Origin: Botryllus schlosseri
Taxonomy: Eukaryota
Length of the DNA stretch: 64,000 nt
NCBI GenBank assembly: GCA_051294905.1
Contig: CM119372.1
Location: 29,452,001-29,516,000, forward strand
Reading direction: 5' to 3'
This document shows positions 805 through 43,077 of the stretch, piece by piece (position 1 is the stretch's first letter; each line of letters opens with the position of its first letter). The notes below the pieces were generated by a model. It ran no database searches. It had not been told where the DNA came from and was given only the letters and a program-made list of their open reading frames with translations. The position numbers and the translations under genes were made by a program.

Positions 805-2269
805 CTTGTTACTGATGAAATGAGGTATTTCTTACTGCTCGAGTTATAGTAGCGTGCGACAGTGTAGGGTATGGTGGCTTATATCTACCATACGCATAAA
901 AGTTCGTCAACACCAGGAGGTTTATCTGACCCATGCAATATATTCGACATTTACACATGTAAATTGATGCTACCTTGGCACATTTGAAAAAATCTCAAAC
1001 CCTTCCTATTTTACTGTCAGCTTACCTCACAACATTGCGTGTACGGTTACCAGTTCACTGCTCATTAATTTTATTGCGTGCTGTTCCATTTTGGGGGTCT
1101 TAACTTTCGCCAATAGTAAGTCTTTACAAAGAAATTCAATTTCTAAAGTGTATAAAGGTTGGGGACCTATCTTATAATTTGACAACACCTTTGTATTATG
1201 TTTTTCTGTAGATGGGGTCACTGCTAGCAGTACGTTACCACACTAGATTTACATGTCGTGAGATTCTGCTGCGATTTCCAAATAATCCCGTGTGTATAGG
1301 CCTATATACGTTCTTACACCGTTGTCCACATATGATATAAAGAAACTGGGGATATCATTGGAGCATCGGGGCTGTTTAAATGGATAATCTCATCCAAAAT
1401 AATTAGAATATATACACTGGAACATTTCCACACGTCAGTAGTATAGTAGCTCGCTGGCATGAGGCCATTGGCTCTTATGTGCGCGGCGGTGATGTGCCTG
1501 AAAACCCATGGTGGCACATCGTACTTTTGGAACCCCCCTCTCGGCGGTGATGTGCCATGTGTTCTTATGGGCGCGGTGATGATGCTACCCTTTCAGGTAT
1601 AGGCTGTGGTGATGATGGGCCGTGACAACTCGTGGTGATGTGTCGCACTTTCAGGTATAGGCTGCGGTGATGATGTGCCTGTGCGGCGATGACGGTACCC
1701 TTTCAGGTATATGCTGTGGCGATGATATGCCCACGGATTCTTGTGTCGTAAGTAGTGTAGTAGATCGGTCGTGACCTGGAAGGGGTTCTTATGGGCCCTC
1801 TCGCACGGTGCCTCGAAACTCGTGTTGGCACGGTGACCCTTTTGACCCCCCTTCCGTTCGCACGGTGCCATTGTGTCTTATGGGCTCTCTCACACGGTAA
1901 CCCTTTTCGGTATAGGGATCGCTCACACGGTGCTTCGAAAACTCGTGTTGGCACATCGTACTTTCAGGTATAGGCATCTCTCACACGGTGCCTCGAAAAC
2001 TCGTGTTGGCAAGTCGTACTTGTGGGTATAGGCATCTCTCGCACGGTGTTGAATATGTATCAGGTATGGAAAATAGTCACGTGATTGGAGGCATCTCTCG
2101 CACGTCGTACTTTCGGGTGTAGGCTGCGTTGGCATGTCGTAATTTCGGGTATAGGTATCCCTCGTGTGGTGTCTTATGGCTGCGGTGGCAAGTCGTACTT
2201 TCAGGTATTTAGTTTGCTACAGAGCCGGCGTAGACGGTGCTTCCAACAATAGCCGCGTTCACAAACCAA

Positions 2270-2880
2270 CACTTCAAATAGGTGTGAAATTGTTTGCAAA
2301 ACCCCGCGATCGCTGACAAGATAATGTCTCGGACATAGCCATCTTTCGTGACTTGGAGTTACAGGCATGCCGATGGCTCAAGGTGTGAAATTTTAGTAAG
2401 CAGTTTGTCACAGAACTTGATTTCACTCGTAATATTTAATAAGTAACGAATAACAGAACCACCAGTATCGGTAACTTGAATAGTGACAAATTGTCACTTA
2501 TTTCTGCTTTAACCCTAATCCTTTGTGAAGTGACCGCTTATTCAAAAAGGTGTGAAATAAGTTACAAATCCCACGATCGCTCACGAGATAACACCTAAGA
2601 CATAGCCATCTCTCACAACTTGTTGTTACATACATTCTAATCGCCATAATGTAATATTTTGATAATCAGTATGTCACAGAACTGGATTTCACTGGTAAAA
2701 TTTAATAAGTAACGAATAACAGAACCGTCGCAGACGGTGATTCGAATACCGAAAAATTCTCACTTATTTCCGATCCAACCCTAATCCTTTGCGAAGTTGA
2801 CGCTTATTCAGATAGGTGTGAAATAATTGTAAAACCCTACGTCGTTGACAGGATAATGCATCAGACATAACGATCTAGCT
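2270..2880. repeat. Diverged ~267-bp subterminal tandem repeat (two full units plus a partial third)
   Basis: Unit start GGTGTGAAAT...GACATA(G/A)C.ATC recurs at about 2281, 2549 and 2815; mirrored at about 14295-14900; related units at about 52030-52600 in E4. Confidence 0.8.
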
Positions 2881-5800
2881 ATAGCACGGGTCGGAATCCA
2901 TTCGCGAGATGTTCTATCGGTAAATTGAGGTAACCCGAAACGAAATATTTTGACTTGGTGTAGTGTAAATTGAAATAGGATTGACAAACATGACTACCAT
3001 CTTTCCCCCAGTCGCATTTCGATATTATACGCACATTGATTTGAAACAAGTAATGAAACATTTTAACTCTATTCACGATCCGGCTTTCCGTTTGTCAAAG
3101 AGACATTTTAACATCTTACCATACGCAAAATAATTATTCATAACATTAACCGGTGTTAAAAATATAGTTTTGACTTACTTGATTATATCACTACAACTTG
3201 CAAACTTGAATTAATTCATCCTGGTTGTATTCATATGACGATAATTTTTATTTAACTGTAAAGGTCGTTACTATTCTGTAAGACAAAGTATTTACTAATC
3301 GGTACATATACGACTTGGCATAAACCCATTACATTTTGAGTATATGAGATTTGAATGACTGAATAATAACTGAGAATTAAATTATCACAAGTGAATCCGT
3401 GAAAGATATTGGAATGTCAGCAACTCTTTACGTTCATAGTTACAACCACATTAACTAATTTACCCGGCCAACACGTCATGATCATTCCTGATATCAACAC
3501 AAACACGACCACTGACTTGAGTTAACCATAAAACGGCATCAAGTTTTTAATCCACTTGTAGCTTTCAGATTATTCGAATGCATCGATGGAGAATATTATT
3601 GGACTCGTCGATATTGTTACTTCAACAAATTATCGCTTACGCCGACTGCGAAAGTTAATATCGAATGATAAGATTTGATCACATATTTGTAGAACACAGA
3701 CATGACAAAGAACATTACTGATATTTTATAAACTAGTCATATTACTTTTCACATCTATCAATATCAGAATACAAGTCATCAATCTTTTTGTTAAATGTAA
3801 CATAGCACTTTTGGAATCGGATTCGTTATAGTCATACAAATTGTATTAAACCCAACACCAAAACAAAAGGACTTTCAAGTTCATTGAAATCAAATCATTC
3901 GTCTTCGACTTGCGCTTTATTAGATTGTACGCAACAATTCGTTACGAATGAGCTGTAACCATAGTTAAGAAATCTTTGTGTCCACAGATGTGGAAGATGA
4001 ATATAGCTAACACAATCACGAATCGACGTTTCAGAGTATTTCACGGATGTAATAAACTTGTTAGTGTCGCCTATCTAAAAGTATGCATGCGTTCGATATC
4101 CATACCGACAGTTGCGATGTTTAGGATTCGCTTACAATGACCAAGAGTGAGGATTTAACATCAATGTCGTTACTGGCGTATTGACAACAGAGAATCGAAA
4201 CATTACACAGTGTGAAAATATATCTTTGATATCCAAGCACTAACCCAAGTACACGATTAATACTCAACCCCGTTCACACTTTCTATAGAACGTGCTAAAT
4301 GTAAAATATCACGAGGTTGCAAGACTTTGATCATTACAAAAGTAAATTGGAATATGTTTGCTAGATGCATTCAATTCAGCTGGAAATGTCTAGTGCACAA
4401 CAATCGTAATATCAAGGAAGTACTTGCTACAGTGTAATATGCTAAACGTGTTTTGCATTGTTGTTCATTTGTAGTATTGATTGAAATTGTTCTTGAACCC
4501 TCAAGTAATAATTTCCGACATGAAACCAAACCGCTGAAAGTCGTTGCCATCACAAAGAAACAATTCGTACGAAGTTTGCCAAATGTGTACTATAGTTAGT
4601 AGTACTAGAATTATTTGTGTAACACATACACCGACAAAGAAATCGGAAATTTTTCCGTTGTCATTCGCTAAAGTAAATGCCATCACAATACTCTGTCACT
4701 AAAATACCATACTTGTATGTGATTGAATCCCTAACAATTAACTCACTAAACCGAACTCCAAAGAAATTTTACTCACTCGACGGATATGAAACAGCGTCGC
4801 TTAACCGGTCTATATCGTTTTCTAAAGGTAAATCATATCCGTCCAATAGAAAACAATTTTCATTAGCTTGGTAATGAAACCGAGTGGGTCTTCATTCAAT
4901 ATTTTGTTTGTGTCAAATACTTTGCAATAAACACACTGGAGTGGTTGAGCTTTACATCATCAGGCTGTAATCTGTAAATCAAGCCTACATTCGATTTGTA
5001 ACTGTATTGTTTACCTAACCGAGTTGTATGCAGAGTTTGATATTTTTGTCATTTAGTGATTGCTGAACATACCACTACGAAACACTCTGTTGATCTTAAT
5101 TCTCTTTGTCGTTATCATCGACGTACATTTGTTTCGAGTACGTAACAACCGACTTTTCTATGACATGATAATTTTTGACAAGTTATGCTTAGAAGATTGG
5201 TACATACCGCGAAAAATAATATACCACTCATATTGATACTGTTACTCCATTGATCAGTATTCTCAAACGGGTCGATTTTCAAACGAGTAAAATTAATTAC
5301 TTGAGTTGTTCTCCTTACTATATATGTAAATGTAAACTCACCCGTCTTTCAACAACAAACAATGATAAAAAGTATCCAATCAAACACAACAAGTTTTACT
5401 ATTAGCCAACTCAACTCATTTCTTACTGAAGGCATATGAAATATATTCATGTTACACGAAAATACTCGATATTCCCATGCTACAAACCTGTACAATGATT
5501 GGTGGTGCTTTCAAACTGTCTCGTTACCTCAAGAACTTTATTGTCTGAATGGTTGTTCATGTATCTTAATAATCAAATAGTTCAACACAGAACTAGTACG
5601 AACAGAAACATCAGAGTTGTTTACACAAAGTTTGTATGTGGATACCATGTGTAAGTCCAGCATAATTGTAGTATCTATCCGAGTGTAGTTAACAAAAATT
5701 TATTATAACAGAGCCGCGTAAACTTTCGTGAAAGAAAAGCATACCCACTTCCTGAGGCTTCTGTCAATGCCATAACAATAAACCAGCTACTCCAACAACA

Positions 5801-6619
5801 GAGTACATATGTTTTCTAGTCACGGTCCTTACATCTTTCACATAGATCAATCTACTTTGCTACCGAAAAGTGCTGAGTCATCACATGATTGTCCTCACAA
5901 CAAAACAACCAGTAGATGGAGCCGTATTAAAATTTTACCAACCCTTTGCACACCAGTGACAAATTATTAAGTGAATCGAGTTGTTGTTCAGCGTCAAGTC
6001 TCCATGTCGAAGCGAAGCGTACATTAAAACAGCGCAAACACAATCCAATTAAAACCACGAATCTATTTTCATTTCCTCACAAACTGCCACATACAGAAAA
6101 ACAAATTTTATTTTCCCAAAACATACTTGTAACCAATCGCTTTCATTAAACACACAACCCCATAAAAGTATTTACTTTCTACAACATAGACATTCCGATG
6201 TCGTCAAGAAATATTTTTATTAATCAAAATCACCGACTTCTGTTTACGGTGTTAGTGTGTGCATGTCATACATGTGGGACCCGTATTAAAATGGACACGA
6301 CACGACTGAATGTGAGGAGATAGAAGTCTATCGCATAGATTTACATGTGGTCTTCGCTACGGTTTCAAAAAACGAATCATCTCTTTTGCATTGATCGAGA
6401 CCGAACAAGTTAGTTACATGTATTCACGGTCATGATTGTGTTTGGCGTATGCGAATGATAGGGTTACTGTCAAATCTACATACAACAACCTTCTGGCGCT
6501 CATAATAGCAATTTCATTCTCTCCCTTCGTAATTGTATATTCACGACAAGTATATTGTACAACTCGACAGCTACGTTTAAAAAGACCAACGACACCGAAC
6601 CCACGACGTTTACCTATGT

Positions 6620-7060
6620 AAAATTACCACTTTCACTTGGCATTCCATCGTTTACCAGCCTAAACATATCATTTTCCTTTGGAGATCTGACGATTACCCA
6701 GAGTAAGAAACCATTTTCACTTGGAAATCTGTTTTTTCCCTGGGTAACAAACCTTTTTTCACTTGGAAATATATTTTTGTCCCGGGTAACAAACCTTTTT
6801 CGCTTGGAAATATATTTTTTACCTGAGCAACAAACCATTTTTGCTTGGAAATATATTTTCTCCCTGAGCAACAAACCATTTTCACTTGGCGGTCCGTCGT
6901 TTACCTGAGTAAAATATCATTTTCCTTTGGAGATCTGTCGTTTACCTGAGTAAAAATATCATTTTCCTTTGGAGATCTGGCGTTTACCCAGTGTAACAAT
7001 ACATTTTCACTTGGTCATCTATCTTTTCCTAGAGTAACAAAACCACTTTCATTTTGAAAT
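6620..7060. repeat. ~40-42 bp minisatellite (CCATTTTCACTTGGAAAT...GTAACAAA)
   Basis: About 10 diverged units; homologous arrays at about 10200-10600 (inverted), 20220-20550 and 41300-41720. Confidence 0.85.
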
Positions 7061-7789
7061 CTGACAAACACCCCTGCCAATTTGGTATTTGTTGTATTGA
7101 CGATAGTTTGAAATAGATTACAACGAACAGCGACAAAATATACACCAACAGCGACTCCGATGCATTTGCGTAATCGCATATTCACTTGTGCTGGTGCATC
7201 CCATCAAAATCATCGGTTGTCCACATGCAATGTGCTCTTGTATATCGAAATGTATGTTTGGGAAATTTGACAATAGGTTTCGATAGGTCTGTGATGTCCG
7301 GGTTCGTGCTTTGGATTGTCCAGAGTTAAAATGTCTGAATAAAACACCTCCTCGACTTTGGTAACTGGTTGGTACGTGGATAACGGTGTTCGGAAAACGG
7401 TTGGATTTATTTCAACCATCGCGATAACAATTCCGGGTCGAGTTTTCTCCCACATGTTTACTATATTGTGTCTTTATTGGTCAATGTATGTCTCGACATT
7501 CAGTTTGAAATCGGAAACCCTGATAAAGTACGTAACTGGATCCGGATACCAACTCTGAATCGATAAACCAATGAACAATATTCAAGTAAACATGTTACAC
7601 CCTGTGTTTCCACGAAAAAATACCATCCACACCTACGTCGCGATTGTTTGCCCACACAAGTATACGCGAAAATGGAGGTGTGTGACATTGCATGCAATGT
7701 GTTGGTATACAAACATCGGGGAGTAAGCCTTCGATCCACAGACATTATCTTAGCCGGTAATTTTGATGCAGATCGAATGTCACCAAGCA

Positions 7790-8120
7790 CCCCGCGATAA
7801 CAATACCAATAAGACACATTGCAATGACTCTGAGTCTGTAAATTCAATCCGAAGCATGACATACAGACACACAAACATGGAACCATAATATGGTTATTCG
7901 CACGACTACCATTGGTGGTGAAAGTGAACTGTACAGCATATACCAATAGAGCGTTCACAGTCGAATATGCGAACCATGCACGATCGTATACCCAGGTTTT
8001 GTTAGATATGTACGAATCCGATAAATCGATACATTTCCTTTCCTTCAACGTCAATAATACAAGGGTCATTCCAATGCATCGCTCGAATGTGAGGTTCATC
8101 GGGTGTAAAATCCATGTCAA
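7790..8120 (-). pseudogene. Possible decayed adenain-type (Polinton) cysteine protease relic
   Basis: Across shifted minus-strand frames: AMHW, then SDSY, then LQTQSHCNVSYWYC, loosely matching the HW / FDSYG / Q...CG.YC order of adenovirus-like proteases. Weak. Confidence 0.25.
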
Positions 8121-8219
8121 ATAGCACCAAAGTGTGCCTTCCGTGTTTTATTATTTCTACCGTCGCATCATGTCTGTGTCGTAACACTATGGTGCGGGGG
8201 TTTGAGAAACGGTACATTG

Positions 8220-8646
8220 CAGAGATGAGCATGGATTAGGATTAGGTTTTGAAAAAACAGGATTTGTGAAATTTTGTCGGATTTGGATTGGATTTGGATT
8301 AGACATTTTTTTCGGAACGGATTAGGATTTGGATTGGATTTACCTATTTTCTGGGAGATTGAGATGTCGTGTGGCGAATGGCAACAAACTTTATTCAGAT
8401 CAGTTATTAATGTACTTATGGTTACTAAGTTATATTGAATCAAGTGAATCGTTGGTTGTGAAAGAAAATTTTCGAATCCCTCCATTGCTAAAATTGGTAT
8501 TTTTTCTGAATTTCCAGTTGGAATCGGATTAGGATTGGACATGGACTTGAATATGAAAAAGTTTCGGATTAGGATTTGGATTTGGATTTGAAGGTTCAGA
8601 TTTGGATTGGATTAGGACATAGAAATTTCAAATCCGCTCATCTCTG
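8220..8646. mobile_element. hAT-type MITE (427 bp) in the E2 spacer
   Basis: TIR CAGAGATGAGC...GCTCATCTCTG; 8-bp TSD GTACATTG (8212-8219, 8647-8654); internal GGATT(A/T)G repeats. Confidence 0.92.
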
Positions 8647-8659
8647 GTACATTGTACAA

Positions 8660-8970
8660 CGGATTGACATGACCAACTGAAACCGACTTCAATAGCCTTG
8701 TGGTGATGCCGTTTCAAAATGCTACCGATATGGCAAACTGAAACCAACGTCAATAGCCTTGTGGTGATGTCGTTTCAAAATGTTACCGATATGACACACT
8801 GAACCCAACGTCAATAGTCTTGTGGTGATGCGGTTTCAAAATGTTACAGATATGACAAATTGAGACCAACCCGATCTCTTGTGGTGATGCGGTTTCAAAA
8901 TGTTACCTATATGACAAATTGAGACTAACCCCGATCTCTTGTGGTGATGGCCGTTTCGAAATGTCACCGG
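8660..8970. repeat. ~60-bp tandem repeat, about 5 copies
   Basis: TTGTGGTGATG recurs at about 8698, 8759, 8820, 8879 and 8939 with homologous intervening sequence. Confidence 0.9.
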
Positions 8971-9441
8971 ACGAGCTGGACAAACCCATACGGAGGTGTG
9001 TTTTATGATTGCGTGTGAAATCACGAGGTGGTGTTCTATTGTGGTGTACGATTGCAGTCTTCATTCCACAGAAACACACCTTATTGGATCACAGTATCAG
9101 TCCGAGATTTGCAGAATCACTGTTCACGATATTTATCTGGAGTCGTTATGTAGGAGTAGCGACATCCATTCATCGTGGCGTAGTGAAAGACTGATCGCAA
9201 TCATTTCGAGCACCGTACTTGGATAGTTCACCTTGGTCAAACGCTGTAGTCTCAGCAGAGAACTTCGGTGTCGACAACACGATGGATATCGACCGATGCA
9301 TCCAGTCACCAGTGGTCTGGGTGGTCTGTCCGCAGATAGGGTCATGACTATCTTGTAATGTTACAACACGATAACACCATCGAGTAAATCAGTGAACGGT
9401 GTCGAAATATCGATGTAATAGCGCGACAGTCATTTGACTCC

Positions 9442-12400
9442 GCAATGTGTCTTATTGGTATTGTTATCGCGGGGTGCTTAGTGACATTCGATCTGCATCA
9501 AAATTACCGGCTATGATAATGTCTGTGGATCGAAGGCTTACTCCCCGATGTTTGTATACCAACACATTGCATGCAATGTCACACACCTCCATTTACGCGT
9601 ATGCTTGTGTGGGCAAACAATCGCGACGTAGGTGTGGATGGTATTTTTTCGTGGAAACACAGGGTGTAACATGTTTACTTGAATATTGTGCATTGGTTTA
9701 TCGATTCAGAGTTGATATCCGGATCCAGTTACGTACTTTATCAGGGTTTCCGATTTCAAACTGAATGTCGAGACATACATTGACCAATAAAGACACAATA
9801 TAGTAAACATGTGGGAGAAAACTCGACCCGGAATTGTAATCGCGATGGGTGAAATAAATCCAAACGTTTTCCGAACACCGTTATCCACGTACCAACCAGT
9901 TACCAAAGTCGAGGAGGTGTTTTATTCAGACATTTTAACTCTGGACAATCCAAAGCACGAACCCGGACATCACAGACCTATCGAAACCTATTGTCAAATT
10001 TCCCAAACATACATTTCGATATACAAGAGCACATTGCATGTGGACAACCGATGATTTTGATGGGATGCACCAGTACAAGTGAATATGCGATTACGCAAAT
10101 GCACCGGAGTCGCTGTTGGTGTATATTTTTTCGCTGTTCGTTGTAATCTATTTCAAACTATCGTCAATACAACAAATACCAAATTGGCAGGGGTGTTTGT
10201 CAGATTTCAAAATGAAAGTGGTTTTGTTACTCTAGGAAAAGATAGATGACAAAGTGAAAATGTATTGTTACACTGGGTAAACGCCAGATCTCCAAAGGAA
10301 AATGATATTTTTACTCAGGTAAACGACAGATCTCCAAAGGAAAATGATATTTTACTCAGATAAACGACGGACCGCCAAGTGAAAATGGTTTGTTGCTCAG
10401 GTAAAAAATATATTTCCAAGCGAAAAAGGTTTGTTACCCGGGGCAAAAATATATTTCCAAGTGAAAAAAGGTTTGTTACCCAGGGAAAAAAACAGATTTC
10501 CAAGTGAAAATGGTTTCTTACTCTGGGTAAACGTCAGATCTCCAAAAGAAAATGATACGTTTAGGCAGGTAAACGATGGAATGCCAAGTGAAAGTGGTAA
10601 TTTTTCATAGGTAAACGTCGTGGGTTCGGTGTCGTTGGTCTTGTTAAACGTAGCTGTCGAGTTGTACAATATACTTGTCGTGAATATACAATTACGAAGG
10701 GAGAGAATGAAATTGCTATTATGAGCGCCAGAAGGTTGTTGTATGTAGATTTGACAGTAACCCTATCATTCGCATATGCCAAACACAATCATGACCGTGA
10801 ATACATGTAACTAACTTGTTCGGTCTCGATCAATGCAAAAGAGATGATTCGTTTTTTGAAATCGTAGCGAAGACCACATGTAAATCTATGCGATAGACTT
10901 CTATCTCCTCACATTCAGTCGTGTCGTGTCCATTTTAATACTGGTGCCACATGTATGACATGCACACACTAACACCGTAAACAGAAGTCGGTGATTTTGA
11001 TTAATAAAAATATTTCTTGACGACATCGGAATGTCTATTTTGTAGAAAGTAAATACTTTTATGGTGTTGTGTGTTTAATGAAAGCGATTGGTTACAAGTA
11101 TGTTTTGGGAAAATAAAATTTATTTTTCTGTATGTGGCAGTTTGTGAGGAAATGAAAATAGATTCGTGGTTTTAATTGGATTGTGTTTGCGCTGTTTTAA
11201 TGTACGCGTCGCTTCGACATGGAGACTTGACGCTGAACAACAACTCGATTCACTTAACAATTTGTCACTGGTGTGCAAAGGGTTGGTAAAATTTTAATAC
11301 GGCTCCATCTACTGGTTGTTTTGTTGTGAGGACAATCATGTGATGACTCAGCACTTTTCGGTAGCAAAGTAGATTGATCTATGTGAAAGATGTAAGGACC
11401 GTGACTAGAAAACATATGTACTCTGTTGTTGGAGTAGCTGGTTTATTGTTATGGCATTGACAGAAGCCTCAGGAAGTGGGTATGCTTTTCTTTCACGAAA
11501 GTTTACGTGGCTCTGTTATAATAAATTTTTGTTAACTACACTCGGATAGATAATACAATTATGCTGGACTTACACATGGTATTCACATACAAACTTTGTG
11601 TAAGCAACTCTGATGTTTCTGTTCGTACTAGTTCTGTGTTGAACTATTTGATTATTAAGATACATGAACAACCATTCAGACAATATAGTTCTTGAGGTAA
11701 CGCGACAGTTTGAAAGCACCACCAATCATTGTACAGGTTTGTAGCATGGGAATATCGAGTATTTTCGTGTAGCATGAATATATTTCATATGCCTTCGGTA
11801 AGAAATGAGTTAAGTTGGCTAATAGTAAAACTTGTTGTGTTTGATTGGATACTTTTTATCATTGTTTGTTGTTGAAAGACGGGTGAGTTTACATTTACAT
11901 ATATAGTAAGGAGAACAACTCAAGTAATCAATTTTACTCGTTTGAAAATCGACCCGTTTGAGAATACTGATCAATGGAGTAACAGTATCAATATGAGTGG
12001 TATAATATTTTTCGCGGTATGTACCAATCTTCTAAGCATAACTTGTCAAAAATTTATCATTTCATAGAAAAGTCGGTTGTTACGTACTCGAAACAAATGT
12101 ACGTCGATGATAACGACAAAGAGAATTAAGATCAACAGAGTGTTTCGAAGTGGTATGTTCAGCAATCACTAAATGACAAAAATATCAAACTCTGCATACA
12201 ACTCGGTTAGGTAAACAATACAGTTACAAATCGGAAGTAAGCTTGATTTACAGATTACAGCCTGATGATGTAAAGCTCAACCACTCCAGTGTGTTTATTG
12301 CAAAGTATTTGACACAAACAAAATATTGAATGAAGACCCACTCGGTTTCATTACCAAGCTAGTGAAAATTGTTTTCTATTGGATGGATATGATTTACCTT

Positions 12401-15400
12401 TAGAAAACGAAATAGACCGGTTAAGCGACGCTGTTTCATATCCGTCGAGTGAGTAAAATTTCTTTGGAGTTCGGTTTAGTGAGTTAATTATTAGGGATTC
12501 AATCACATACAAGTATGGTATTTTAGTGACATAGTATTGTGATGGCATTTACTTTAGCGAATGACAACGGAAAAATTTCCGATTTCTTTGTCGGTGTAAG
12601 TGTTACACAAATAATTCTAGTACTACTGACTATAGTACACATTTGGCAAACTTCGTACGAATTGTTTCTTTGTGATGGCAACGACTTTCAGCGGTTTGGT
12701 TTCATGTCGGAAATTATTACTTGAGGGTTCAAGAACAATTTCAATCAATACTACCAATGAACAACAATGCAAAACACGTTTAGCATATTACACTGTAGCA
12801 AACATATTCCAATTTACTTTTGTAATGATCAAAGTCTTGCAACCTCGTGATATTTTACATTTAGCACGTTCTATAGAAAGTGTGAACGGAGTTAGGTATT
12901 AATCGTGTACTTGGGTTAGTGCTTGGATATCAAAGATATATTTTCACACTGTGTAATGTTTCGATTCTCTGTTGTGAATACCCCAGTAACGACATTGATG
13001 TTAAATCCTCACTCTTGGTCATTGTAAGCGAATCCTAAACATCGCAACTGTCGGTATGGATATCGAACGCATGCATACTTTTAGATAGGCGACACTAACA
13101 AGTTTATTACATCCGTGAAATACTCTGAAACGTCGATTCGTGATTGTGTTAGCTATATTCATCTTCCATATCTGTGGACACAAAGATTTCTTAACTATGG
13201 TTACAGCTCATTCGTAACGAATTGTTGCGTACAATCTAATAAAGCGCAAGTCGAAGACGAATGATTTGATTTCAATGAACTTAAAAGTCCTTTTGTTTTG
13301 GTGTTGGGTTTAATACAATTTGTATGACTATAACGAATCAGATTCCAAAAGTGCTATGTTACATTTAACAAAAAGATTGATGACTTGTATTCTGATATTG
13401 ATAGATGTGAAAAGTAATATGACTAGTTTATAAAATCTCAGTAATGTTCTTTGTCATGTCTGTGTTCTACAAATATGTGATCAAATCTTATCATTCGATA
13501 TTAACTTTCGCAGTCGGCGTAAGCGATAATTTGTTGAAGTAACAATATCGACGAGTCCAATAATATTCTCCATCGATGCATTCGAATAATCTGAAAGCTA
13601 CAAGTGGATTAAAAACTTGATGCCGTTTTATGGTTAACTCAAGTCAGTGGTCGTGTTTGTGTTGATTTCAGGAATGATCATGACGTGTTGGCCGGGTAAA
13701 TTAGTTAATGTGGTTGTAACTATGAACGTGAAGAGTTGCTGACATTCCAATATCTTTTACGCTGTAATATACGGATTCACTTGTGATAATTTAATTCTCA
13801 GTTATTATTCAGTCATTCAAATCTCATATACTCAAAATGTAATGGGTTTATGCCAAGTCGTATATGTACCGATTAGTGAATACTTTGTCTTACAGAATAG
13901 TAACGACCTTTACAGTTAAATAAAAATTATCGTCATATGAATACAACCAGGATGAATTAATTCAAGTTTGCAAGTTGTAGTGATATAATCAAGTAAGTCA
14001 AAACTATATTTTTAACACCGGTTAATGTTATGAATAATTATTTTGCGTATGGTAAGATGTTAAAATGTCTCTTTGACAAACGGAAAGCCGGATCGTGAAT
14101 AGAGTTAAAATGTTTCATTACTTGTTTCAAATCAATGTGCGTATAATATCGAAATGCGACTGGGGGAAAGATGGTAGTCATGTTTGTCAATCCTATTTCA
14201 ATTTACACTACACCAAGTCAAAATATTTCGTTTCGGGTTACCTCAATTTACCGATAGAACATCTCGCGAATGGATTCCGACCCGTGCTATAGCTAGATCG
14301 TTATGTCTGATGCATTATCCTGTCAACGACGTAGGGTTTTACAATTATTTCACACCTATCTGAATAAGCGTCAACTTCGCAAAGGATTAGGGTTGGATCG
14401 GAAATAAGTGAGAATTTTTCGGTATTCGAATCACCGTCTGCGACGGTTCTGTTATTCGTTACTTATTAAATTTTACCAGTGAAATCCAGTTCTGTGACAT
14501 ACTGATTATCAAAATATTACATTATGGCGATTAGAATGTATGTAACAACAAGTTGTGAGAGATGTCTATGTCTTAGGTGTTATCTCGTGAGCGATCGTGG
14601 GATTTGTAACTTATTTCACACCTTTTTGAATAAGCGGTCACTTCACAAAGGATTAGGGTTAAAGCAGAAATAAGTGACAATTTGTCACTATTCAAGTTAC
14701 CGATACTGGTGGTTCTGTTATTCGTTACTTATTTAATATTACGAGTGAAATCAAGTTCTGTGACAAACTGCTTACTAAAATTTCACACCTTGAGCCATCG
14801 GCATGCCTGTAACTCCAAGTCACGAAAGATGGCTATGTCCGAGACATTATCTTGTCAGCGATCGCGGGGTTTTGCAAACAATTTCACACCTATTTGAAGT
14901 GTTGGTTTGTGAACGCGGCTATTGTTGGAAGCACCGTCTACGCCGGCTCTGTAGCAAACTAAATACCTGAAAGTACGACTTGCCACCGCAGCCATAAGAC
15001 ACCACACGAGGGATACCTATACCCGAAATTACGACATGCCAACGCAGCCTACACCCGAAAGTACGACGTGCGAGAGATGCCTCCAATCACGTGACTATTT
15101 TCCATACCTGATACATATTCAACACCGTGCGAGAGATGCCTATACCCACAAGTACGACTTGCCAACACGAGTTTTCGAGGCACCGTGTGAGAGATGCCTA
15201 TACCTGAAAGTACGATGTGCCAACACGAGTTTTCGAAGCACCCTGTGAGCGATCCCTATACCGAAAAGGGTTACCGTGTGAGAGAGCCCATGAGACACAA
15301 TGGCACCGTGCGAGCGGAAGGGGGGGTCAAAAGGGTCACCGTGCCAACACGAGTTTCGAGGCACCGTGCGAGAGGGCCCATGAAAACCCCTGCCAGGTCA

Positions 15401-15421
15401 CGACCAATCTACTACACTACT
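9442..15421 (-). repeat. E2 right inverted arm (~5.98 kb)
   Basis: Reverse complement of 1751-7822 with scattered substitutions and a few indels. Confidence 0.97.
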
Positions 15422-15427
15422 GTCGTG

Positions 15428-17673
15428 GTGAATAATGTTGTGGTGCGGTCATGATGTGATGTTGATTATGATGTAGATTGATCACGTGATTGATCCTTAC
15501 TTAATGTGTATATTCTAAATTATTATATATGACCGATTCGAGTTAATCCCAACGTTTACGGTGAGCGCGACTTCGATATATCGTTATTCTTATGGACGCG
15601 GCGATGATTCGTACCTTCGGGTATAGCCCGCGACGGCATGTTAACGTAGCTGATATAGACGCGGCGACATGATAACGTTACAGGTATAGGGATCGCTCAC
15701 ACGGTTATACATGAAGACGTCATAGTTCAGTCGTGACAAACGACCGATATCGCATTCTCTATTCTAACTCCAAGTCTTTTCGCGCTGCCTGTTGATTCCT
15801 ACGTAACCTGAATAGCACGCCGAGATTCAGCCTGGATTATTCGCACCTTCCATACCGCTGTTTCGTACCTACAAAATAGTCTGCTGTTCGCAATCGTGAC
15901 AAGATAATATTATTCAAAGTCTGTAGACATAGCACTGTCTTATATCAATATTATTAAGAATGTTTATCGCTTGGTTGTCGGACTATTCACTCGTTGATTT
16001 GAAACAAACGTTGAAACTTACAACTCTATCATTGGTCTATAATTATTTTAGTTACAACTGAGTTTTCTGAAAATGCTATCATTATCGCACCCCGAAATTT
16101 TACCGTGTTAGAACACACAAGAGCGTCAAGCACAAAAACATTCACAAGTGTTAAAACTAATTTTCACTTACTTGATTATATTATTACAACCTGTAAACTT
16201 TATTAATTCATCCTGGTGAACCCACGAATAGTGTTGCTCGCTTGTAATATTCACATATTGATCTGAATAATAACAACTCATGAGACCCTACAACTTTATT
16301 AACGAACTAGTTATTTTTACGAAACTGGAAATGCAAACTCTATTCGTCTCGACATCTCGACATCTTACAACACTCGAAAGAGTCAATTATGAAAGCACCG
16401 CCAAGTAAATCCGTTGTAACTCACATAGCACAAGAGTATGTATCCGAAAGTAGACAAACGACACTTGGACAACCACCACATCCAACACTCAATATCTGTT
16501 GTATTCTTCATATTTAATTATTCTACTGTAAAAGCGATTGATAGTTTTCACGACACAACAACTACAAATCAATGCTTGCGACTTGAGATTAACATTGAGT
16601 GTATGAGATTTGAATATCCGAAAAATAACCGAGAATTAATTTCCCACAGACGAATCCGTATACTTTAATGTAAGATATCGTGAGGTAAGTAAGTTCTTTA
16701 CGATGACATTGATTCACAATCCGATATTCTCATCATACCCATTCTTGAAATCAACTCTTAACGGTAATACGAACAATCGTGACATCAACTTTCAAACACA
16801 TCGAATTATTCACACATTCCGCGCCGCTGTTTTCGCCCCAATAGAATCAATACCAACTAGCTCTACAAGAATCAAGAATCACAAGTACGCACATTATACA
16901 GCCATTGTATTTATCAAGTTGAAATCAAGCTCTTAACAAAAACACGCATCTAATCACTTACCAACTCTATCATGAAAATCCTCGAATCCTTATTATTAAG
17001 AATGTTATAGTACAGCGTCGGAATCCATTCGCGAGATGTTCTATAGGTAAATTGAGATCACACAAAATGAAATAGTTTGACTTTGGTGTAGTGGGATTTG
17101 AAATAGGATGGACAAACATGACTGCCAACTTTCACCCAGTCACATTTCGAGATTATACGCACCTTGATTTGAAACAAGTAATGAAATATTACAACTATAT
17201 TCGCGATCCGGCTTTACGTCTGTCAAAGATAGTTTCAGAAATACTATCACTATGACATCTCAACATTTTAACATCTTGCCATACGCAAATGAGTAAAATA
17301 CAAAAACCTTGTCAAGTCAATCCGTTTATAACTTACCAGACCAACTCAACAGTACCCGTATGAAAAGTAAACAAGATTGCGCGAGGACATACAACCACTA
17401 CAACCTAAAATCAATAACTAGTTCGGTTGTATTCGTAGTCCGACGATGCGTCTTTTTTATTCAACTTTAAGTCGTTACTATCCTGTAAGATAAAGGAATT
17501 ACTACGCGGTATATTCTGCAAGACAAAGTAATTACTACTCGATATATTTTGTAAGACAAAAGTAATTACTAATCATTGCAGGTGACTCGAGATTAACATA
17601 ATATGTTTGAGTATACGAGATTTGAAAGTCTGATCAACGTAGTTGGGAATTCATTTCTTACAATCGAACGCTG
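15428..17673 (+). repeat. E1 left inverted arm, distal part (continues 1437-1750)
   Basis: Reverse complement of about 21101-23330; mirrored ORF-track entries 16438..16668(+) ~ 22107..22337(-) and 16703..16936(+) ~ 21839..22072(-). Confidence 0.95.
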
Positions 17674-20600
17674 GCATTATATTGAAAGTTATCATGCTGT
17701 AAACAAAAGGATTGACACAGTGATTTGACATATGAGATTTTGTAATAGTTGATCATTACTTGATTATTAAATTATTCGCGTTAATTAGATACGGCGTTGT
17801 GGTAAAGGTTATTATGACAGCAACAAACTTTGCAGTACCATTGTTATTAACATATTGAGTTGTAAAACTATGCGTGTCTGAAATGTTCTTGATTGGAAAC
17901 TTATTCCACCTTGATACAAATCTCTCTGCGTATCGCGAATATCAGAAAATATTTTACAAATGTAATTGTTTCCAGTAACCAAGACTAAAGATGAAACAAC
18001 ATTTTTGTTTGCTGATTAACAACCGGCGCATTACTTCATTGTCGGAATCTGCGACGAAGAACTGAAACACATACCCGCATTACCCCGCTGTCAAGATGTG
18101 TGAATTGACATACCGCCGCTTGATTAATGCTTATTCCGTTCGCACCATTTCTCACACACTCTGATCATTACAAAAACGAATTGGAATATGTTTGCTAGAC
18201 ACCTTCTACTCAGCTATAGGTTTGAATAATACAGAAAACTCAGAGCATTATTAAACTCGAAATATATTCTTCACCGAAATCTACAAAAATGTGGTTGTAT
18301 TGTTGTTCATAGTAGTGATCATAAATTATTATTTGAATCTTCTAAAGTAATTGTAATCATAAAACGAAACCACTGGTGGTTATTACCATAGCAAAAGCTT
18401 ATTGCAGGATGTTTGCTCAATGCATCCTAGTTTGAGAAACTGGAATTATTTGTAGAACGCACACCATCAAAGAAAAACACGCAACCACTAACATGAATCC
18501 TAGTTGAGATTGAGCTCCAAGTCATTTTCTGCGCGTGCACAACTTAAGGGTCGTTTTTCTGGACACAAGACATAAAATCTTTTAGTTGTCAAAATGACAC
18601 ACATATTTGTAAATATCACTTACTTGGTTAAAGCTAATGCATCGACGGTAACAACCGACACGGATCATTATTATTTATTTCATAATCATTTCAACAAAAT
18701 TACACACACTGTACATTGTTGCTTTTTGCGTGACACGAGAATAAATCAGATCGCAACGAACTTAAGGTGTATTTTACTCACTCGTCGCATTATGGATATT
18801 GACCAACATCGTTTCAACGGCGTGCATCGTTTTGCCGAGTACGAAATATGTTAGTGTAGCAGAATTTGTTTTAGCGTAACAGAAAACTATTTTCACTTTC
18901 TTGACTTTTGAAAACAATACACGCGCATTCTGTTTGTGTCAACTATAGTTACTTGTATGATACGACTGATAATCCCCGCGACTCATACAAAAGTATGAAA
19001 GATATTTACATCACACAAAGTACTCGACCTTACTCGATATTTTTGGTACTACGAAACTGAAGAATGATTGCCTACGCTTTCAAAGTAAAGAATGCTTAGT
19101 TAGACTCTACAGACTGTTTTGACGTCGCAAGTGTTTTTGACATGAATGATCCAACGTAGCTTAATATTCACATAGTTCGATACAGTACTAGTACTTACAG
19201 AAATATCAGAGTTGTTTACACAAAAGTTTGTATATGTACAATATGTGAATACCATGCGTAAGTCCTGCACAACCGCGGTATCTATCCGAGTTTAGTCAAC
19301 ACACATTTATTACACCGGGTCACGTAAACTTTCGTAGAAGATAAGCATAGTCACTACTCGGGGGTTCTGGCAATGTCATAGCAATAAACCAGTTACTCCA
19401 ACAATAGAGTACCTATGTTTTCTAGTCACCGTCCCTAAATCTTACACACAGAACAATCAACTTTGCAAACGAAAAGTGCTGAGTCATCACATGATTGCCG
19501 TCACAACAAAACGACTAGTAGATGGAGCCGTATTAAAAATGTTCCTAACCCTTAGAACACCAGTGACAAATCGTACAATGGATATGTTTTGTCGAGTTGT
19601 TGCTCATTGTCAAGTCTTCGTGTTGAACCGTACATTTGAACAGCACAACCACAAGCCAATTGTAACCACGAATCTATTTTCATTTTGGCACAAATTGCCC
19701 CATACAGAAAAATAAATTTTCTTTCCTCCACACATACTTGTAACCAATCCCTTTCATCAAACACACAACTCAATAAACAACAAAACCCCGACTTAGTTGA
19801 ACATGTAGTTGAGAAATATTTTTAATAATCTATATCATAATCATCGACTTCCGTTTACGGTGTTAGTGTGTGAGTCATATCTGGAGACTTGTATCAAAAT
19901 TGATTCGAATTGACTAAATAGAACGAGGGTTGAAATACTTCGAGTCGATTCATAAGTGGTCTTCGTTGGGGTTTTAATCGAAGCATACAGAATGGTCTTA
20001 CTGTAGGCTCTGCTCTCTTGTTCGGCAACTGGGTGGTCGAAATGCATGCATTCACATTTGAACAACGATCTTGTTTCGTCACGCGAAAAATATCTTCACT
20101 GTTGCGATACTCTGATACTCTGCACAAGATGTGTAAATCCTTTTCACACTCATAATACTACACTAACGGGATTCCGACGTCAACGTTTAACAATACCAAT
20201 GACGCTGAACATACGACGCTTACCCCAGTAAAAATACCATTTTCGTTGGGAAATATATTTTTTCCATGAGTAACAAACCATTTTCGTTTGGAAATCTATC
20301 GTTACCTAGAGTAACAAACCATTTTCACTTGTAAATATATTTTTTCCTAGAGTAACAATACCATTTTCACTCGGAAATCTATATTTTCCCTGAGTAACAA
20401 GCCATTTTCGTTTGTAAATCAAACGTTACCTAAAGTAACAAACCATTTTCGTTGGGAAATATATTTTTCCCCCGAGTAATAAACCATTTTCGCTTGTAGA
20501 TGTGATGTTTACCTGAGTAAAAATACCATTTTAGTTTTGAAATCTGACAACCGCACGCATCAATTTGGTATTTGTTGTATTGGCGACAGTTTGAAATTGA

Positions 20601-20750
20601 TTACAACGAACAGTGACGAAAATATACACGACAACCGGTTTCAGAGTATACTCTCGTCGGTAGCATCACATCTATATCATCGGGTAACCACATGAAATAA
20701 CAATATGCTCTTGTATATCGAAATGTATGCTTTGGAAAATAACGAATTTT

Positions 20751-20782
20751 GTGTGTCCCGGTGTGTGTGTGTGTGTGTGTGT
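20751..20782. repeat. (GT)n microsatellite in the E1 spacer
   Basis: GTGTGTCCCGGTGTGTGTGTGTGTGTGTGTGT; absent from the homologous positions in E2 (~7290) and E4 (~41925). Confidence 0.85.
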
Positions 20783-21100
20783 CCGGGTTCGTGCTTTAGT
20801 TTTTCCACAGAGTGAATATGTCTGAATAAAACACCACCTCGACTTTGGTACCTTGTTGGTACATGGATAACGGTGGTCGGAAATCGATGAATTTAGGTTC
20901 CCGTCGCGCTAACAATCCCGGGTTACTTGTGATTTCCCTCACACATGTTTACTATATCGTGTCACTCTTTATTGGTCAATACATATCACACCGTTCAGTT
21001 TGAAATCGGAAACCCGAGAAAGTATTAACCGGATCCGGATATCAACTCGGAATCGAAAAACCAATGAACAATATTCAAACATGTTACACCCCGTGTAACA

Positions 21101-23662
21101 CAGCGTTCGATTGTAAGAATTGAATTCCCAACTACGTTGATCAGACTTTCAAATCTCGTATACTCAAACATATTACGTTAATCTCAAGTCGCCCGCACCG
21201 AGTAGTAATTACTTTTGTCTTACAAAATATATCGAGTAGTAATTACTTTGTCTTGCAGAATATACCGCGTAGTAATTCCTTTATCTTACAGGATAGTAAC
21301 GACTTAAAGTTGAATAAAAACGACGCATCATCGGACTACATATGCAACCGAACTAGTTATGGATTTTAGGTTGCAGTGGTTGTATGTCCTCGCGCAATCT
21401 TGTTTACTTTTCATACGTGTACTGTTGAGTTGGTCCGGTAAGTTACAAACAGATTGACTTGACAAGTTATTTTTTATTTTACTCTTTTGCGTATGGCAAG
21501 ATGTTAAAATGTTGGGATGTCATAGTGATAGTATTTCTGAAACTATCTTCGACAAACGTAAAGCCGGATCGCGAATATAGTTGTAATATTTCATTACTTG
21601 TTTCAAATCAATGTGCGTATAATCTCGAAATGTGAATGGGTGAAAGTTGGCAGTCATGTTTGTCATTCCTATTTCAAATCCCACTACACCAAAGTCAAAC
21701 TATTTCATTTTGGGTGATTTCAATTTACCTAAAGAACATCTCGCGAATGGATTCCGACGCTGTACTATAACATTCTTAATAATAAGGATTCGAGGATTTT
21801 CATGATAGAGTTGGTAAGAGGTAAGATGCGTGTTTTTGTTAAGAGTTTGATTTCAACTTGATAAATACAATGGCTGTATAATGTGCGTACTTGTGATTCT
21901 TGATTCTTGTAGAGCTAGTTGGTATTGATTCTATAGGCGCGAAAACAGCGGCGCGGAATGTGTGAATAATCCGATGTGTTTGAAAGTTGATGTCACGATT
22001 GTTCGTATTTTCGTTAAGACTTGATTTCAAGAATGGGTATGATGAGAATATCGGATTGTGAATCAATGTCATCGTAAAGAACTTACTTAACTCATGATAT
22101 CTTACATTAAAGTATACGGATTCGTCTGTGGGAAATTAATTCTCGGTTATTTTTCGGATATTCAAATCTCGTACACTCAATGTTAATCTCAAGTCGCAAG
22201 CATTGATTTGTAGTTGTTGTGTCGTGAAAACTATCAATCGCTTTTACAGTGAAATAATTAAATATGAAGAATACAACTGATATTGATTGTTGGATTTGGT
22301 GGTTGTCCAAGTGTCGTTTGTCTACTTTCGGATACATACTCTTGTGCTATGTGAGTTACACCGGATTTACTTGGCGGTGTTTTCATAATTGACTCTTTCG
22401 AGTGTTGTAAGATGTCGAGATGTCGAGACGAATAGAGTTTGCATTTCCAGTTTCGTAAAAATAACTAGTTCGTTGATAAAGTTGTAGGGTCTCATGAGTT
22501 GTTATTATTCAGATCAATATGTGAATATTACAAGCGAGCAACACTATTCGTGGGTTCACCAGGATGAATTAATAAAGTTTACAAGTTGCAATAATATAAT
22601 CAAGTAAGTTAAAATTAGGTTTAACACTTGTGAATGTTTTTGTGCTTGACGCTCTTGTGTGTTCTCTAACACGGTAAAATTTCGGGATGCGATAATGATA
22701 GCATTTTCAGAAAACTCAGGTGTAACTAAAATAATTATAGACCAATGATAGAGTTGTAAGTTTCAACGTTTGTTTCAAATCAACGAGTGAATAGTCCGAC
22801 AACCAAGCGATCAACATTCCTAATATTATTGATATAAGACAGTGCTATGTCTACAGACTTTAAATAATATTATCTTGTCACGATTGCGAACAGCAGACTA
22901 TTTTGTAGGCACGAAACAGCGCTATGGAACGTGCGAATAATCCAGGCTGAATCTCGGCGTGCTATTCAGGTTACGTAGGAATCAATAGGCAGCGCGAAAA
23001 GACTTGGAGTTAGAATAGAGAATGCGATATCGGTCGTTTGTCACGACTGAACTATGGCGTCTTCATGTATAACCGCGTGAGCGATCCCTATACCTGTAAC
23101 GTTATCATGTCGCCGCGTCTATATCAGCTACGTTAACATGCCGCCGCGGGCTATACCCGAAAGTACGAATCATCGCCGAGTCCATAAGAATAACGATACC
23201 GTAAACGTTGGGATTAACTCGAATCGGTCATATATAATAATTTGGAATATACACATTAAGTAAGGATGAATCAGTGATCAATATACTTCATAATCAACAT
23301 CACATCATGACCGCACCACAACATTATTCACTACGACACAAGAATCTGTGGGCACATCATTGCCACAGCATATACCTGAAAGGCTACCGTCATCGCTGCA
23401 CAGGTACATCATCACCGCAGCCTATACCTGAAAGTGCGTCTCACCACCTCGAGTTTTCACGGCACATCATCACCACAGCCCATACCTGAAAGGGTGCCAT
23501 CATCACCGCACCCATAAGAACACATGGCACATCACCGCCGAGAGGTGGGGGTCCAAAAGTACGATGTGCCACCACGGGTTTTCAGGCACATCACCGCCGC
23601 GCCCATAAGATCATAAGATCGCGTTAGCCAATGGCCTCATGCCAGCGATCTACTATACTACT
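21101..23662 (-). repeat. E1 right inverted arm (2.56 kb)
   Basis: Reverse complement of 1437-1750 joined to 15428-17673. Confidence 0.95.
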
Positions 23663-42467: not shown

Positions 42468-42510
42468 TTGTTGTTTATTGAAAACTCGATAAAGTGCATT
42501 TGTTTATATA

Positions 42511-42979: not shown

Positions 42980-43077
42980 CTGTAAAAACAAGACACAGAT
43001 ATCAGGAAATATTGTTACTAAAATGTTTTAGTTACAAGTTGACATTTCGAAAACACCCACAGATTGTAAACAAAGTT

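Follow-up and report, generated by a model that had tools for sequence, protein, structure and literature searches.

Giant gene-less fold-back elements with Polinton-type ends in the genome of Botryllus schlosseri

The window analysed is a stretch of 64,000 nucleotides of Botryllus schlosseri DNA (assembly GCA_051294905.1, contig CM119372.1, positions 29,452,001–29,516,000) that contains two nested palindromic elements, E1 and E2, and a third element, E4. Repeat search, self-BLAST and global alignment show that E2 (1751–15421) is a palindrome of 13,671 bp. It consists of a left arm of 6,072 nt on the forward strand (1751–7822; terminus AGTAGTGTAGTAGATCGGTCGTGACCTGG), a centre of 1,619 nt (7823–9441) and a right arm of 5,980 nt on the reverse strand (9442–15421), and the global alignment of the arms gives 98.73% identity over 5,965 aligned pairs, with 76 mismatches and six gap events. 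Within the left arm are subterminal repeats of 58 nt and, at 6607–7063, a 41-nt array. The element begins with AGTAGTGTAGTAG, ends with ACTACT and is located inside the left arm of E1, where it is flanked by the two copies of its target-site duplication, GTCGTA on the left (1745–1750) and GTCGTG on the right (15422–15427), which match at five of six positions. The unfilled target site is retained in the other (right) arm of E1 (...TGTGTCGTAGTGAAT...).

E1 comprises positions 1437–1750 and 15428–23662, and measures 8,549 bp without E2 and one copy of its duplication. The arms of E1 (2,560 and 2,562 nt) are 96.22% identical in the global alignment, the termini are AGTAGTATAGTAG...ACTACT, and CACGTC flanks the element on each side (1431–1436 and 23663–23668). 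The left arm, on the forward strand, is separated by E2 into an outer piece that carries the AGTAGTATAGTAG terminus (1437–1750) and an inner piece (15428–17673), the latter delimited by repeat search, self-BLAST and global alignment. It is followed by a unique inner part on the same strand (17674–21096), assigned from its contiguity with the left arm and its colinearity with E4 (38476–42212) and E2 (~4300–7607), by a 4-nt filler, AACA (21097–21100), and by the right arm on the reverse strand (21101–23662); the single-copy interior including the filler spans 17674–21100. The arms have diverged by 3.8% in the host, E1, and by 1.3% in the guest, E2, which fits the order of nesting, one nested pair being the clock check for arm divergence.

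The arrangement AGTAGT...ACTACT is found at all ends of E1, E2 and E4. The Polinton end motif occurs seven times in the window where 0.14 occurrences are expected, and none of 100 shuffles reaches seven; two of the seven are weak, with two mismatches, and lie inside the E2 arms. A further Polinton-type terminus, AGTAGTTAGTATGATCGCTCGTGA (27729–27752, forward strand), marks the start of another element fragment, possibly the E3 of the earlier note, with sequence homologous to E1 at 28058–29318.

None of the 74 stop-to-stop frames of at least 55 aa in E1 and E2 reaches the Pfam cut-off, and tblastn with 15 frames of a reference Polinton gives no match to either element at E ≤ 0.01; a reading of the arms as decayed Polinton genes was rejected on this result. 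The longest frame, of 215 aa at the left E2 junction (7500–8147), was rejected as a gene, being split into several frames in other copies. No match to the rve integrase was found in E1, E2 or E4, and the 1,300-aa pPolB frame of the reference Polinton matches E4 alone within the window by tblastn. E1 and E2 have 6-bp target duplications and lack pPolB and integrase. The earlier note had described both as palindromes with AGTAGT ends, 6-bp duplications and no credible gene, which self-BLAST, global alignment and Pfam confirm; its proposal that they integrated as units, with 6-bp duplications and Polinton-type ends and without Polinton genes, is likewise borne out.

The reference Polinton (C8pol) is a resident element of 16.5 kb with the duplication AGCATC that encodes the pPolB frame, an integrase with rve and chromo domains (PF00665, 2.6e-16) and an ATPase with a weak AAA/Pox_A32 match. 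Its terminal inverted repeat (TIR) measures 777 bp; the possibility, raised in the earlier note, that autonomous relatives have TIRs as long as the arms does not hold. Over their first 110 nt, E1, E2, E4, a further palindromic copy (C12a) and both ends of the reference can be aligned, and E2 and the reference have ATCGGTCGTGACCTGG.AGGGG.TCTTATGG in common at the same offset. Judged by this alignment, the ends of the palindromes (the first ~100 nt) are Polinton ends. Beyond the termini, DNA and protein comparisons, including tblastn, gave no similarity of the arms to the reference Polinton. In the protein searches, which scored the best 48 and the best 150 candidates, the best 48 of 326 pPolB candidates show amino acid identities of 91–100% (44 of them at least 94%), mostly in open frames of ~1,200–1,300 aa, and the Polinton gene module has 99 candidates at 98–100% identity. 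The helper Polinton family is large and young.

A different affiliation has to be weighed against these ends. The long arms, internal tandem arrays and lack of coding capacity resemble those of Drosophila FB and Galileo elements (PMC3573991) and would suit conventional fold-back transposons from a different superfamily (FB, P/Galileo, MULE-like) in which the AGTAGT start arose by chance. However, the ~100 nt of terminal homology is shared with an integrase-bearing Polinton, 6-bp duplications are present in all seven elements read, the (AGT)2 motif is known from Mavericks (PMC8097293), and E4 is a naturally formed chimera that includes a Polinton core, all of which makes this affiliation very improbable.

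Palindromes of this kind are abundant in the genome. Copy C12a measures 12,958 bp, with arms of 5,993 nt at 99.63% identity and the duplication AACGGT, and copy C3a measures 15,640 bp, with arms of 7,243 nt at 99.08% and the duplication AACGTG. Copy C5b belongs to a different family: it is 15,788 bp long, with arms of 6,475 nt at 99.66% and the duplication CGTGTG, and its terminus has only the first 11 nt in common with E2. Arm identity within copies ranges from 96 to 99.7%, against differences of 6–25% between copies. The fully read copies are 12.96–15.8 kb in length, 13 of 16 further E2-type pairs fall between 12.3 and 16.2 kb, and the helper measures 16.5 kb. In a related palindrome family, each arm contains an intact Bcl-2-like gene. 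Two other loci were read in part: one (C7a) shows one arm and ~270 nt of centre within 20 kb, and the other (C3b) is another palindrome that runs past the fetched sequence.

Long palindromes are difficult to assemble, and the inverted arms might be mis-joined reads of a repeat. In line with such an artefact, no listed piece among the public 60–200-nt unitigs on 17700–21400, probably from the source sample (four runs), bridges the inner E1 junction at 21096/21101; a loose unitig end at 21096 carries the usual continuation of the family. By contrast, palindromic copies are found by the dozen on numerous contigs, with distinct flanking sequence and a matching 6-bp duplication in every case, and the empty site in the other arm of E1 confirms the insertion site of E2. 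An assembly artefact is hardly credible on this evidence.

The earlier note had taken E1 and E2 as fresh, independent copy-back or snap-back defective genomes of an E4-like Polinton, each made in protein-primed replication and then integrated. The presence of the same end at both termini of each element, in inverted order, is in agreement with this proposal. The junctions of E2, however, argue against it. Genome nucleotide searches scored the best 40 candidates each, and the terms unique and shared, as applied here to junctions, refer to those lists. Queries of 401 nt across the left (7622–8022) and right (9242–9642) E2 junctions, with 1,181 and 1,236 first-look candidates, respectively, each matched over their full or nearly full length, at 88–94% identity, in all 39 other loci that were scored. 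Both junctions are common to the family, so the fold-back architecture was inherited and amplified as a unit. As far as its sequence tells, E2 is a copy of a pre-existing palindrome and not a fresh copy-back product.

The centre of E2 has a more individual history. About 1 kb of it is common to the whole family, a small repeat at ~8218–8660 forms a private insert, and a 61-nt array is expanded at 8669–8969. With the full 1,619-nt centre as the query, no other locus among the best 40 scored candidates matched end to end; because of the private insert in E2, the matches of other copies fall into two segments, ~1–397 and 905/1056–1603. Colinearity with the C5b arm hints that position 9442 is the contiguous side of the E2 axis.

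E4 (36846–53437) is an element of 16,592 bp with a TIR of 847 bp at 98.82% identity. It is flanked by TGTGAC, and a paralogous empty site is present at 34587–34592. The left part (36846–42281, forward strand) comprises the left TIR (36846–37692) and a non-coding module that comes from a palindromic element; the Polinton core follows on the reverse strand (42282–47590), and the right part (47591–53437) ends in the right TIR (52591–53437). The core is 94% identical to the reference Polinton at the nucleotide level and contains the first 62 ATPase codons (42282–42467), a 214-aa frame and a pPolB frame that is split into 958 and 345 aa. Pfam and PDB searches with this pPolB frame returned nothing useful, and it was recognised through homologues that carry PF03175 and through motifs identified by eye. 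Two frames of the right part, of 290 and 176 aa, are 35% and 49% identical, respectively, to frames of the reference.

The E1 and E2 arms are homologous to the left interior of E4, as the earlier note had stated, and the relationship is colinear at 70–87% identity. The origin of that interior is a different matter. The ATPase gene is broken off behind its first 62 codons at the junction (~42281/42282), which none of 39 other scored matches spans. The left module is 97–98% identical to 39 loci, of which 38 form 19 inverted pairs, and the reference Polinton has genes at the place that the arm occupies in E4. By these searches, E4 is a one-off, recent chimera of a Polinton core and an arm of a young palindromic subfamily. 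Its left interior was acquired from a palindromic element, so E4 is, on this comparison, not a representative parent, and the claim that each palindrome is two copies of the left half of a Polinton does not follow. The chimera also shows that Polintons and palindromes recombine and swap parts. The pre-existing E2 junctions, the palindrome origin of the left module of this unique chimera and the genes of the standard Polinton at the arm position, without similarity to the arms, together make independent copy-back genomes of an E4-like parent an unlikely account of E1 and E2.

The junctions of E1 present a different picture. Among the best 40 candidates, all 39 other scored loci continue uninterrupted across the left junction, and none of 39 spans the right junction (21096/21101). 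The left break lies at a point ~215 nt short of the arm end in E2, and with the filler AACA, a native hairpin of 4 bp (ACAC/GTGT) grows to 8 bp (TGTTACAC-CCC-GTGTAACA). E1 is a private asymmetric derivative that consists of one arm at full length and the outermost 2.56 kb of its partner. One history, to which we give a nearly even chance, is that E1 inserted as a complete 13–15-kb palindrome and was subsequently broken at or close to its midpoint; end joining with templated, polymerase-theta-like fill-in would then have sealed the break, with loss of the centre and of 3.4 kb from the inner side of the right arm. The privacy of the junction argues for this history, as do the position of the left break, near the axis where long palindromes break, and the length of E1, which at 8.5 kb is below that of 14 of the 16 E2-type pairs with a derived length. 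A 4-nt templated filler is typical of polymerase-theta-like end-joining repair. Copy-back before integration nevertheless fits the same data equally well: one junction contiguous with the parent and one novel junction with a snap-back-templated 4-nt filler are what copy-back with a loop leaves, and break repair leaves the same signature. With its private junction and snap-back-templated filler, E1 is either a one-off copy-back product or the result of a post-insertion deletion. Junctions unique to this locus had been named in the earlier note as grounds for rejecting its proposal; those of E2 are not unique, and the inner junction of E1 is.

The earlier note had also seen in E1 and E2 two independent copy-back events that point to a recurrent class of Polinton parasites. 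The independence is lost, given that both E2 junctions are family-wide. The recurrent class itself stands, with palindromic copies in the hundreds and no fewer than two different fold-back axes (the E2 type and the C5b type).

We consider it probable that E1 and E2 are gene-less, non-autonomous giant fold-back elements with Polinton ends, members of a very abundant group that is moved in trans by resident Polintons. The Polinton integrase would insert the palindromes, and pPolB, judging by the ends, probably replicates them. In protein-primed replication, the single strand that is displaced would fold back over its whole length as a hairpin, in effect an extreme TIR panhandle, and either this structure or polymerase template switching from one arm to the other may keep the arms alike; arm identity could instead result from post-insertion gene conversion between arms, as in large genomic palindromes, and not from the mode of replication. 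The ancestral fold-back may have arisen from a snap-back or copy-back event or from palindrome-forming repair; its copy-back origin is something that we infer, and the absence of Polinton-gene similarity from the arm interiors makes the capture of Polinton ends an alternative to derivation from a Polinton genome. The filler of E1 is the sole trace of polymerase template switching, and repair synthesis would also leave it. More tentatively, and with the odds against it, the palindromes may be true satellites of Polinton viruses. The snap-back genome would then be an adaptation and not a defect: the hairpin would restore the protein-primed origin and keep the arms identical, the doubled arm would give a packageable length, and some lineages would carry a payload, two convergent Bcl-2-like gene copies under purifying selection.

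Several known systems offer points of comparison with the elements so interpreted. Defective adenovirus DNA is said to have been described by Daniell and Mullenbach in 1978, and the protein-primed yeast plasmid pGKL1 has palindromic or hairpin derivatives in which, as would be the case here, one end is copied back. The arms of Drosophila FB elements are formed mainly by tandem subrepeats and the duplication is of another length, whereas in each 6-kb arm here tandem arrays take up just a few hundred nt, and the duplication is 6 bp. The palindromes resemble snap-back and copy-back defective viral genomes (PMC13506859) in that one end is copied back and helper genes are absent, and the adenovirus and pGKL1 forms also in the protein-primed polymerase of the replicating system; unlike these, they are integrated in the germ line, inherited and present in hundreds of copies. 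With FB elements and Galileo of the P superfamily (PMC3573991), they share a structure of mostly two long inverted arms, tandem arrays, the lack of coding sequence and abundance, and they differ in their Polinton-like ends and duplication length, in arms of mostly unique sequence and in their size of 12–16 kb.

The closest relationship is to Polintons themselves, for which inverted-repeat ends and target duplications have been reported (PMC4196379). The end motif of Mavericks is (AGT)2 or (AG)3, their target duplications measure 6 bp and their TIRs 46–1,447 bp (PMC8097293). The palindromes agree with Polintons/Mavericks in their (AGT)2...(ACT)2 ends, 6-bp duplications, TIRs and ~100-nt homology to a resident Polinton, and differ in lacking pPolB, integrase, ATPase, protease and capsid genes, in having arms of 6–7 kb against that range of TIRs, and in their hundreds of copies. 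Since Polintons by definition encode pDNAP and an integrase (PMC5499653), E1 and E2 are not members but dependants. Butterfly Polintons (10.1101/2025.02.07.637071) are autonomous and have TIRs of ~2 kb that hold the hexon and adenain genes; like the palindromes, they have Polinton ends and inverted repeats of exceptional length, in which any content is present twice. Here, the repeat exceeds theirs threefold in length and accounts for ~90% of an element that has no Polinton gene. No description of giant palindromic Polinton dependants was found in open-access papers or on bioRxiv.

By a rough reckoning, the dependants make up more than 1% of the genome, and Polintons, normally present in low numbers in a genome, can sustain dependants of 13–16 kb by the hundreds. 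We know of no experimental demonstration of Polinton replication or movement, and the protein-primed single-strand racket model of Polintons was deduced from gene content. An abundant, young, gene-less family that has only Polinton ends and a hairpin body is a natural reporter for this model, which predicts hairpin intermediates, identical arms in newly inserted copies, a maximum length imposed by the capsid and dependence on a helper. With the ends and insertion scars of Polintons and a family that numbers in the hundreds, these giant palindromes look like hitch-hikers of Polintons and not like one-off accidents.

Two gene-less palindromic elements, E1 and E2, lie nested in the window. They were detected by an inverted-repeat search and by self-BLAST of the window, with arm figures taken from global alignment, and these analyses bear out the palindromic structure proposed for both in the earlier note. 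E2 (1751-15421) is 13,671 bp long, with arms of 6,072 and 5,980 nt at 98.73% identity and a centre of 1,619 nt. E1 (1437-1750 and 15428-23662) is 8,549 bp long, with arms of 2,560 and 2,562 nt at 96.22% identity and 3,427 nt between them, and hosts the E2 insertion in its left arm. The ends and the 6-bp target-site duplications claimed for the two elements are also confirmed: CACGTC borders E1 on both sides, and E2 is bordered by GTCGTA and GTCGTG, with the unfilled site preserved in the right arm of E1. For the end motif common to the elements, chance predicts 0.14 occurrences in the window, and 7 are present. E1 and E2 together hold 74 frames of at least 55 aa, and no Pfam cut-off is reached by any of them. 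The sole long frame, of 215 aa and spanning the junction at 7822 of E2, was rejected as a gene, as it is frameshifted in other copies.

The reference Polinton, C8pol, is a resident pPolB-bearing element elsewhere in the same genome. It measures 16.5 kb, has terminal inverted repeats (TIRs) of 777 bp at 97.9% and the duplication AGCATC, and contains pPolB (a frame of 1,300 aa), an integrase of 359 aa with rve and chromodomain (PF00665, E = 2.6e-16), a frame of 203 aa that matches AAA/Pox_A32 weakly, and several unnamed frames. The best 48 of 326 pPolB candidates in the genome show 91–100% aa identity (at least 94% in 44 of the 48), most of them in open frames of about 1,200–1,300 aa. The C8pol gene module has 99 candidates at 98–100% identity, with no inverted pairs among the 39 listed. 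Both C8pol ends align with the first 110 nt of E1, E2, E4 and C12a, and a 31-nt block common to E2 and C8pol is found at the same offset with two differences. In PMC8097293 the hallmarks of Mavericks are (AGT)2 ends, 6-bp duplications without mismatch, and TIRs of 46–1,447 bp; the same paper connects the TIRs with jumping-back, a step in protein-primed replication. Taken with the terminal alignment, these hallmarks indicate that the palindromes have the cis-signals of Polintons and none of the Polinton genes. On the simplest reading, the Polinton integrase would act on the palindromes in trans, and pPolB would presumably serve them as well.

A further Polinton-type terminus (AGTAGTTAGTATGATCGCTCGTGA), almost that of the reference Polinton, is located at 27729 and is followed by pieces resembling the E1 arm and the final C8pol frame; this element (27729-29318) is probably truncated. 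Immediately upstream of pPolB, a frame of about 290–297 aa (L041:5910-6800; window 48054-48926) is retained in both Polinton lineages, with an identity of just 35%. The pPolB relatives in echinoderms, cnidarians and one ctenophore often have N-terminal C2H2 zinc fingers, and some of these are annotated as zinc-finger host proteins.

The E2 junctions were searched against the 495-Mb animal genome to which the window belongs, using a 401-nt query over each arm/centre junction and scoring the best 39 other loci among 1,181 and 1,236 first-look candidates. Both queries matched over their whole or nearly whole length in all 39, at 88–94% identity. Two other copies of the E2-type palindrome, C12a (12,958 bp; arms of 5,993 nt, 99.63%; duplication AACGGT) and C3a (15,640 bp; arms of 7,243 nt, 99.08%; duplication AACGTG), have junction positions that agree with those of E2 to within ~15 nt, and a third, C7a, displays a single arm inside the 20-kb sequence examined. 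The terminal 600 nt of E2 located 16 further (+,-) pairs, with element lengths, derived by hand from match coordinates, of 12.3–16.2 kb in 13 cases and of 30.1, 10.1 and 6.2 kb in the remaining three. The 30-kb pair (C1:40805261-40835344) has E2-type termini around a Polinton gene-module match at C1:40830463, and is probably a Polinton nested within a palindrome. The centre is ~1 kb in other E2-type copies; that of E2 contains a private insert and a 61-nt array expanded relative to them. At window 8218-8969, the insert (spacer positions 387-835) is a small repeat 96–97% identical to copies elsewhere, and the tandem array has 5 units in E2 versus ~1–2 in C12a. The check that had been proposed was positive for E2, whose junctions recur at loci bearing other duplications. 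Because of this recurrence, E2 is seen to have inherited a ready-made palindrome, and its supposed origin by an independent copy-back is not borne out. The palindromic form is the rule in the large family to which E2 belongs.

Arm identity within copies is 96.2–99.7%; identity between copies is 66–94%, and mosaic. In the one nested pair, arm divergence is 3.8% in the older host, E1, versus 1.3% in the younger guest, E2, and the order in this single pair fits arms that were identical at insertion and drifted afterwards. Arm-to-arm conversion may instead still be going on after insertion.

The presumed spacer of E1 is its left arm carried on inward. Residues 15428-21096 are colinear along their entire length with the E4 module and the E2 arm in the self-BLAST, and all 39 other scored loci, E4 among them, run unbroken across the left junction. 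The right junction is private, crossed by none of the 39 other scored matches. At this junction, four added bases, AACA, turn an inverted repeat of 4 bp, native to the sequence, into one of 8 bp (TGTTACAC-CCC-GTGTAACA), an extension of a type that four random bases would produce with a chance of 1 in 256. Filler of this kind is left when a 3' end snaps back, is extended on itself and then joins the other arm. Such hairpin-extending filler is predicted by copy-back of a replicating polymerase, and equally by breakage close to the palindrome axis followed by repair with templated fill-in. Repair is slightly favoured by the uniqueness of the inner junction to this locus, the short length of E1 (8.5 kb) and the abundance of complete palindromes.

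E4, the Polinton-containing element at 36846-53437 (16,592 bp; TIR of 847 bp; duplication TGTGAC), had been regarded as carrying the single-copy original of the arms in its left interior. Its core (42282-47590) shares 94% identity with the reference Polinton and opens with only the first 62 ATPase codons (95% aa identity), where the homology ends. The junction at this break is spanned by none of the 39 other scored matches. To the left of the break, the module at 40300-41100 matches 39 scored loci at 97–98% identity; 38 of these loci are arranged as 19 inverted pairs spaced 4.7–6 kb. The ATPase cut, the unique junction and the inverted-pair matches contradict the assigned role, and identify E4 as a recent chimera with a palindrome arm in place of the Polinton's ATPase-integrase-capsid side. 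Together with the terminal alignment, the chimera indicates that the palindrome ends are genuinely related to those of Polintons. Its pPolB is broken into frames of 958 and 345 aa. The right part derives from a more distant Polinton lineage, since the two frames there are 35% and 49% identical to their reference counterparts. E4 is a three-way mosaic of palindrome arm, Polinton core cut after codon 62 and distant-lineage right part; despite this make-up, its terminal 847 nt are 98.8% alike, implying that the ends were homogenised after chimera formation or are both palindrome-derived. The reference Polinton has genes at the position occupied in E4 by the arm, and its proteins from that region have no match in E1 or E2; the arms are, therefore, not two copies of a Polinton left half. 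The host sequence of E4 (36680-36845, 53438-54245) is a copy of another repeat. A second copy 2 kb upstream (33878-35393) keeps the paralogous empty site, at 34587-34592, which gives a clean control for the 6-bp duplication.

A second architecture is found in C5b, a Polinton-ended palindrome of a different family (within C5:28164000-28183999; 15,788 bp; arms of 6,475 nt, 99.66%; centre of ~2.8 kb; duplication CGTGTG; start AGTAGTGTAGT) that has little sequence in common with E1 and E2. Its arm traverses a segment that forms part of the centre in E2 (7956-8189), and the segment order is that expected on reading E2 inward from the right arm. As an E2-centre segment falls inside the C5b arm, the two families fold back about different positions in related sequence, and the E2 type seems to be an asymmetric derivative. 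Each C5b arm carries an intact Bcl-2-like gene of 198 aa (L037:6657-7250, plus strand, mirrored in L038) with a Bcl-2 domain (PF00452, 4.5e-21, 75.7 bits versus a cut-off of 31.4). The closest solved relatives of the protein are BCL2L10 and Mcl-1 (about 1e-10), and a large protein set yielded only two homologues. In the genome, the best 150 of 425 candidates show 74–100% aa identity and are mostly stop-free; a hand count among them gave 53 convergent (+,-) pairs. For 19 copies picked from stop-free rows, a biased sample, the median dN/dS is 0.51 (162 of 171 pairs, with dS > 0.02), with values of 0.30–0.46 in comparisons with the six most divergent copies (dS 0.26–0.39) and of about 1 or more between near-identical copies. 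This pattern of low ratios at a distance and high ratios nearby points to a gene that would be under selection along active lineages and decay once inserted. E1, E2, E4, C12a, C3a and C7a all lack the gene.

No description of giant palindromic Polinton dependants, or of Bcl-2 cargo, was found in open-access papers or bioRxiv. The nearest published item is the butterfly Polintons, for which a preprint (10.1101/2025.02.07.637071) describes ~2-kb TIRs that double the hexon and adenain genes. The palindromes, ends and duplications described in the earlier note stand; its copy-back interpretation is supported in part, and fails for E2 as an independent event and for E4 as a parent. The palindromes are non-autonomous fold-back elements that belong to the Polinton system, by a mechanism that we infer.
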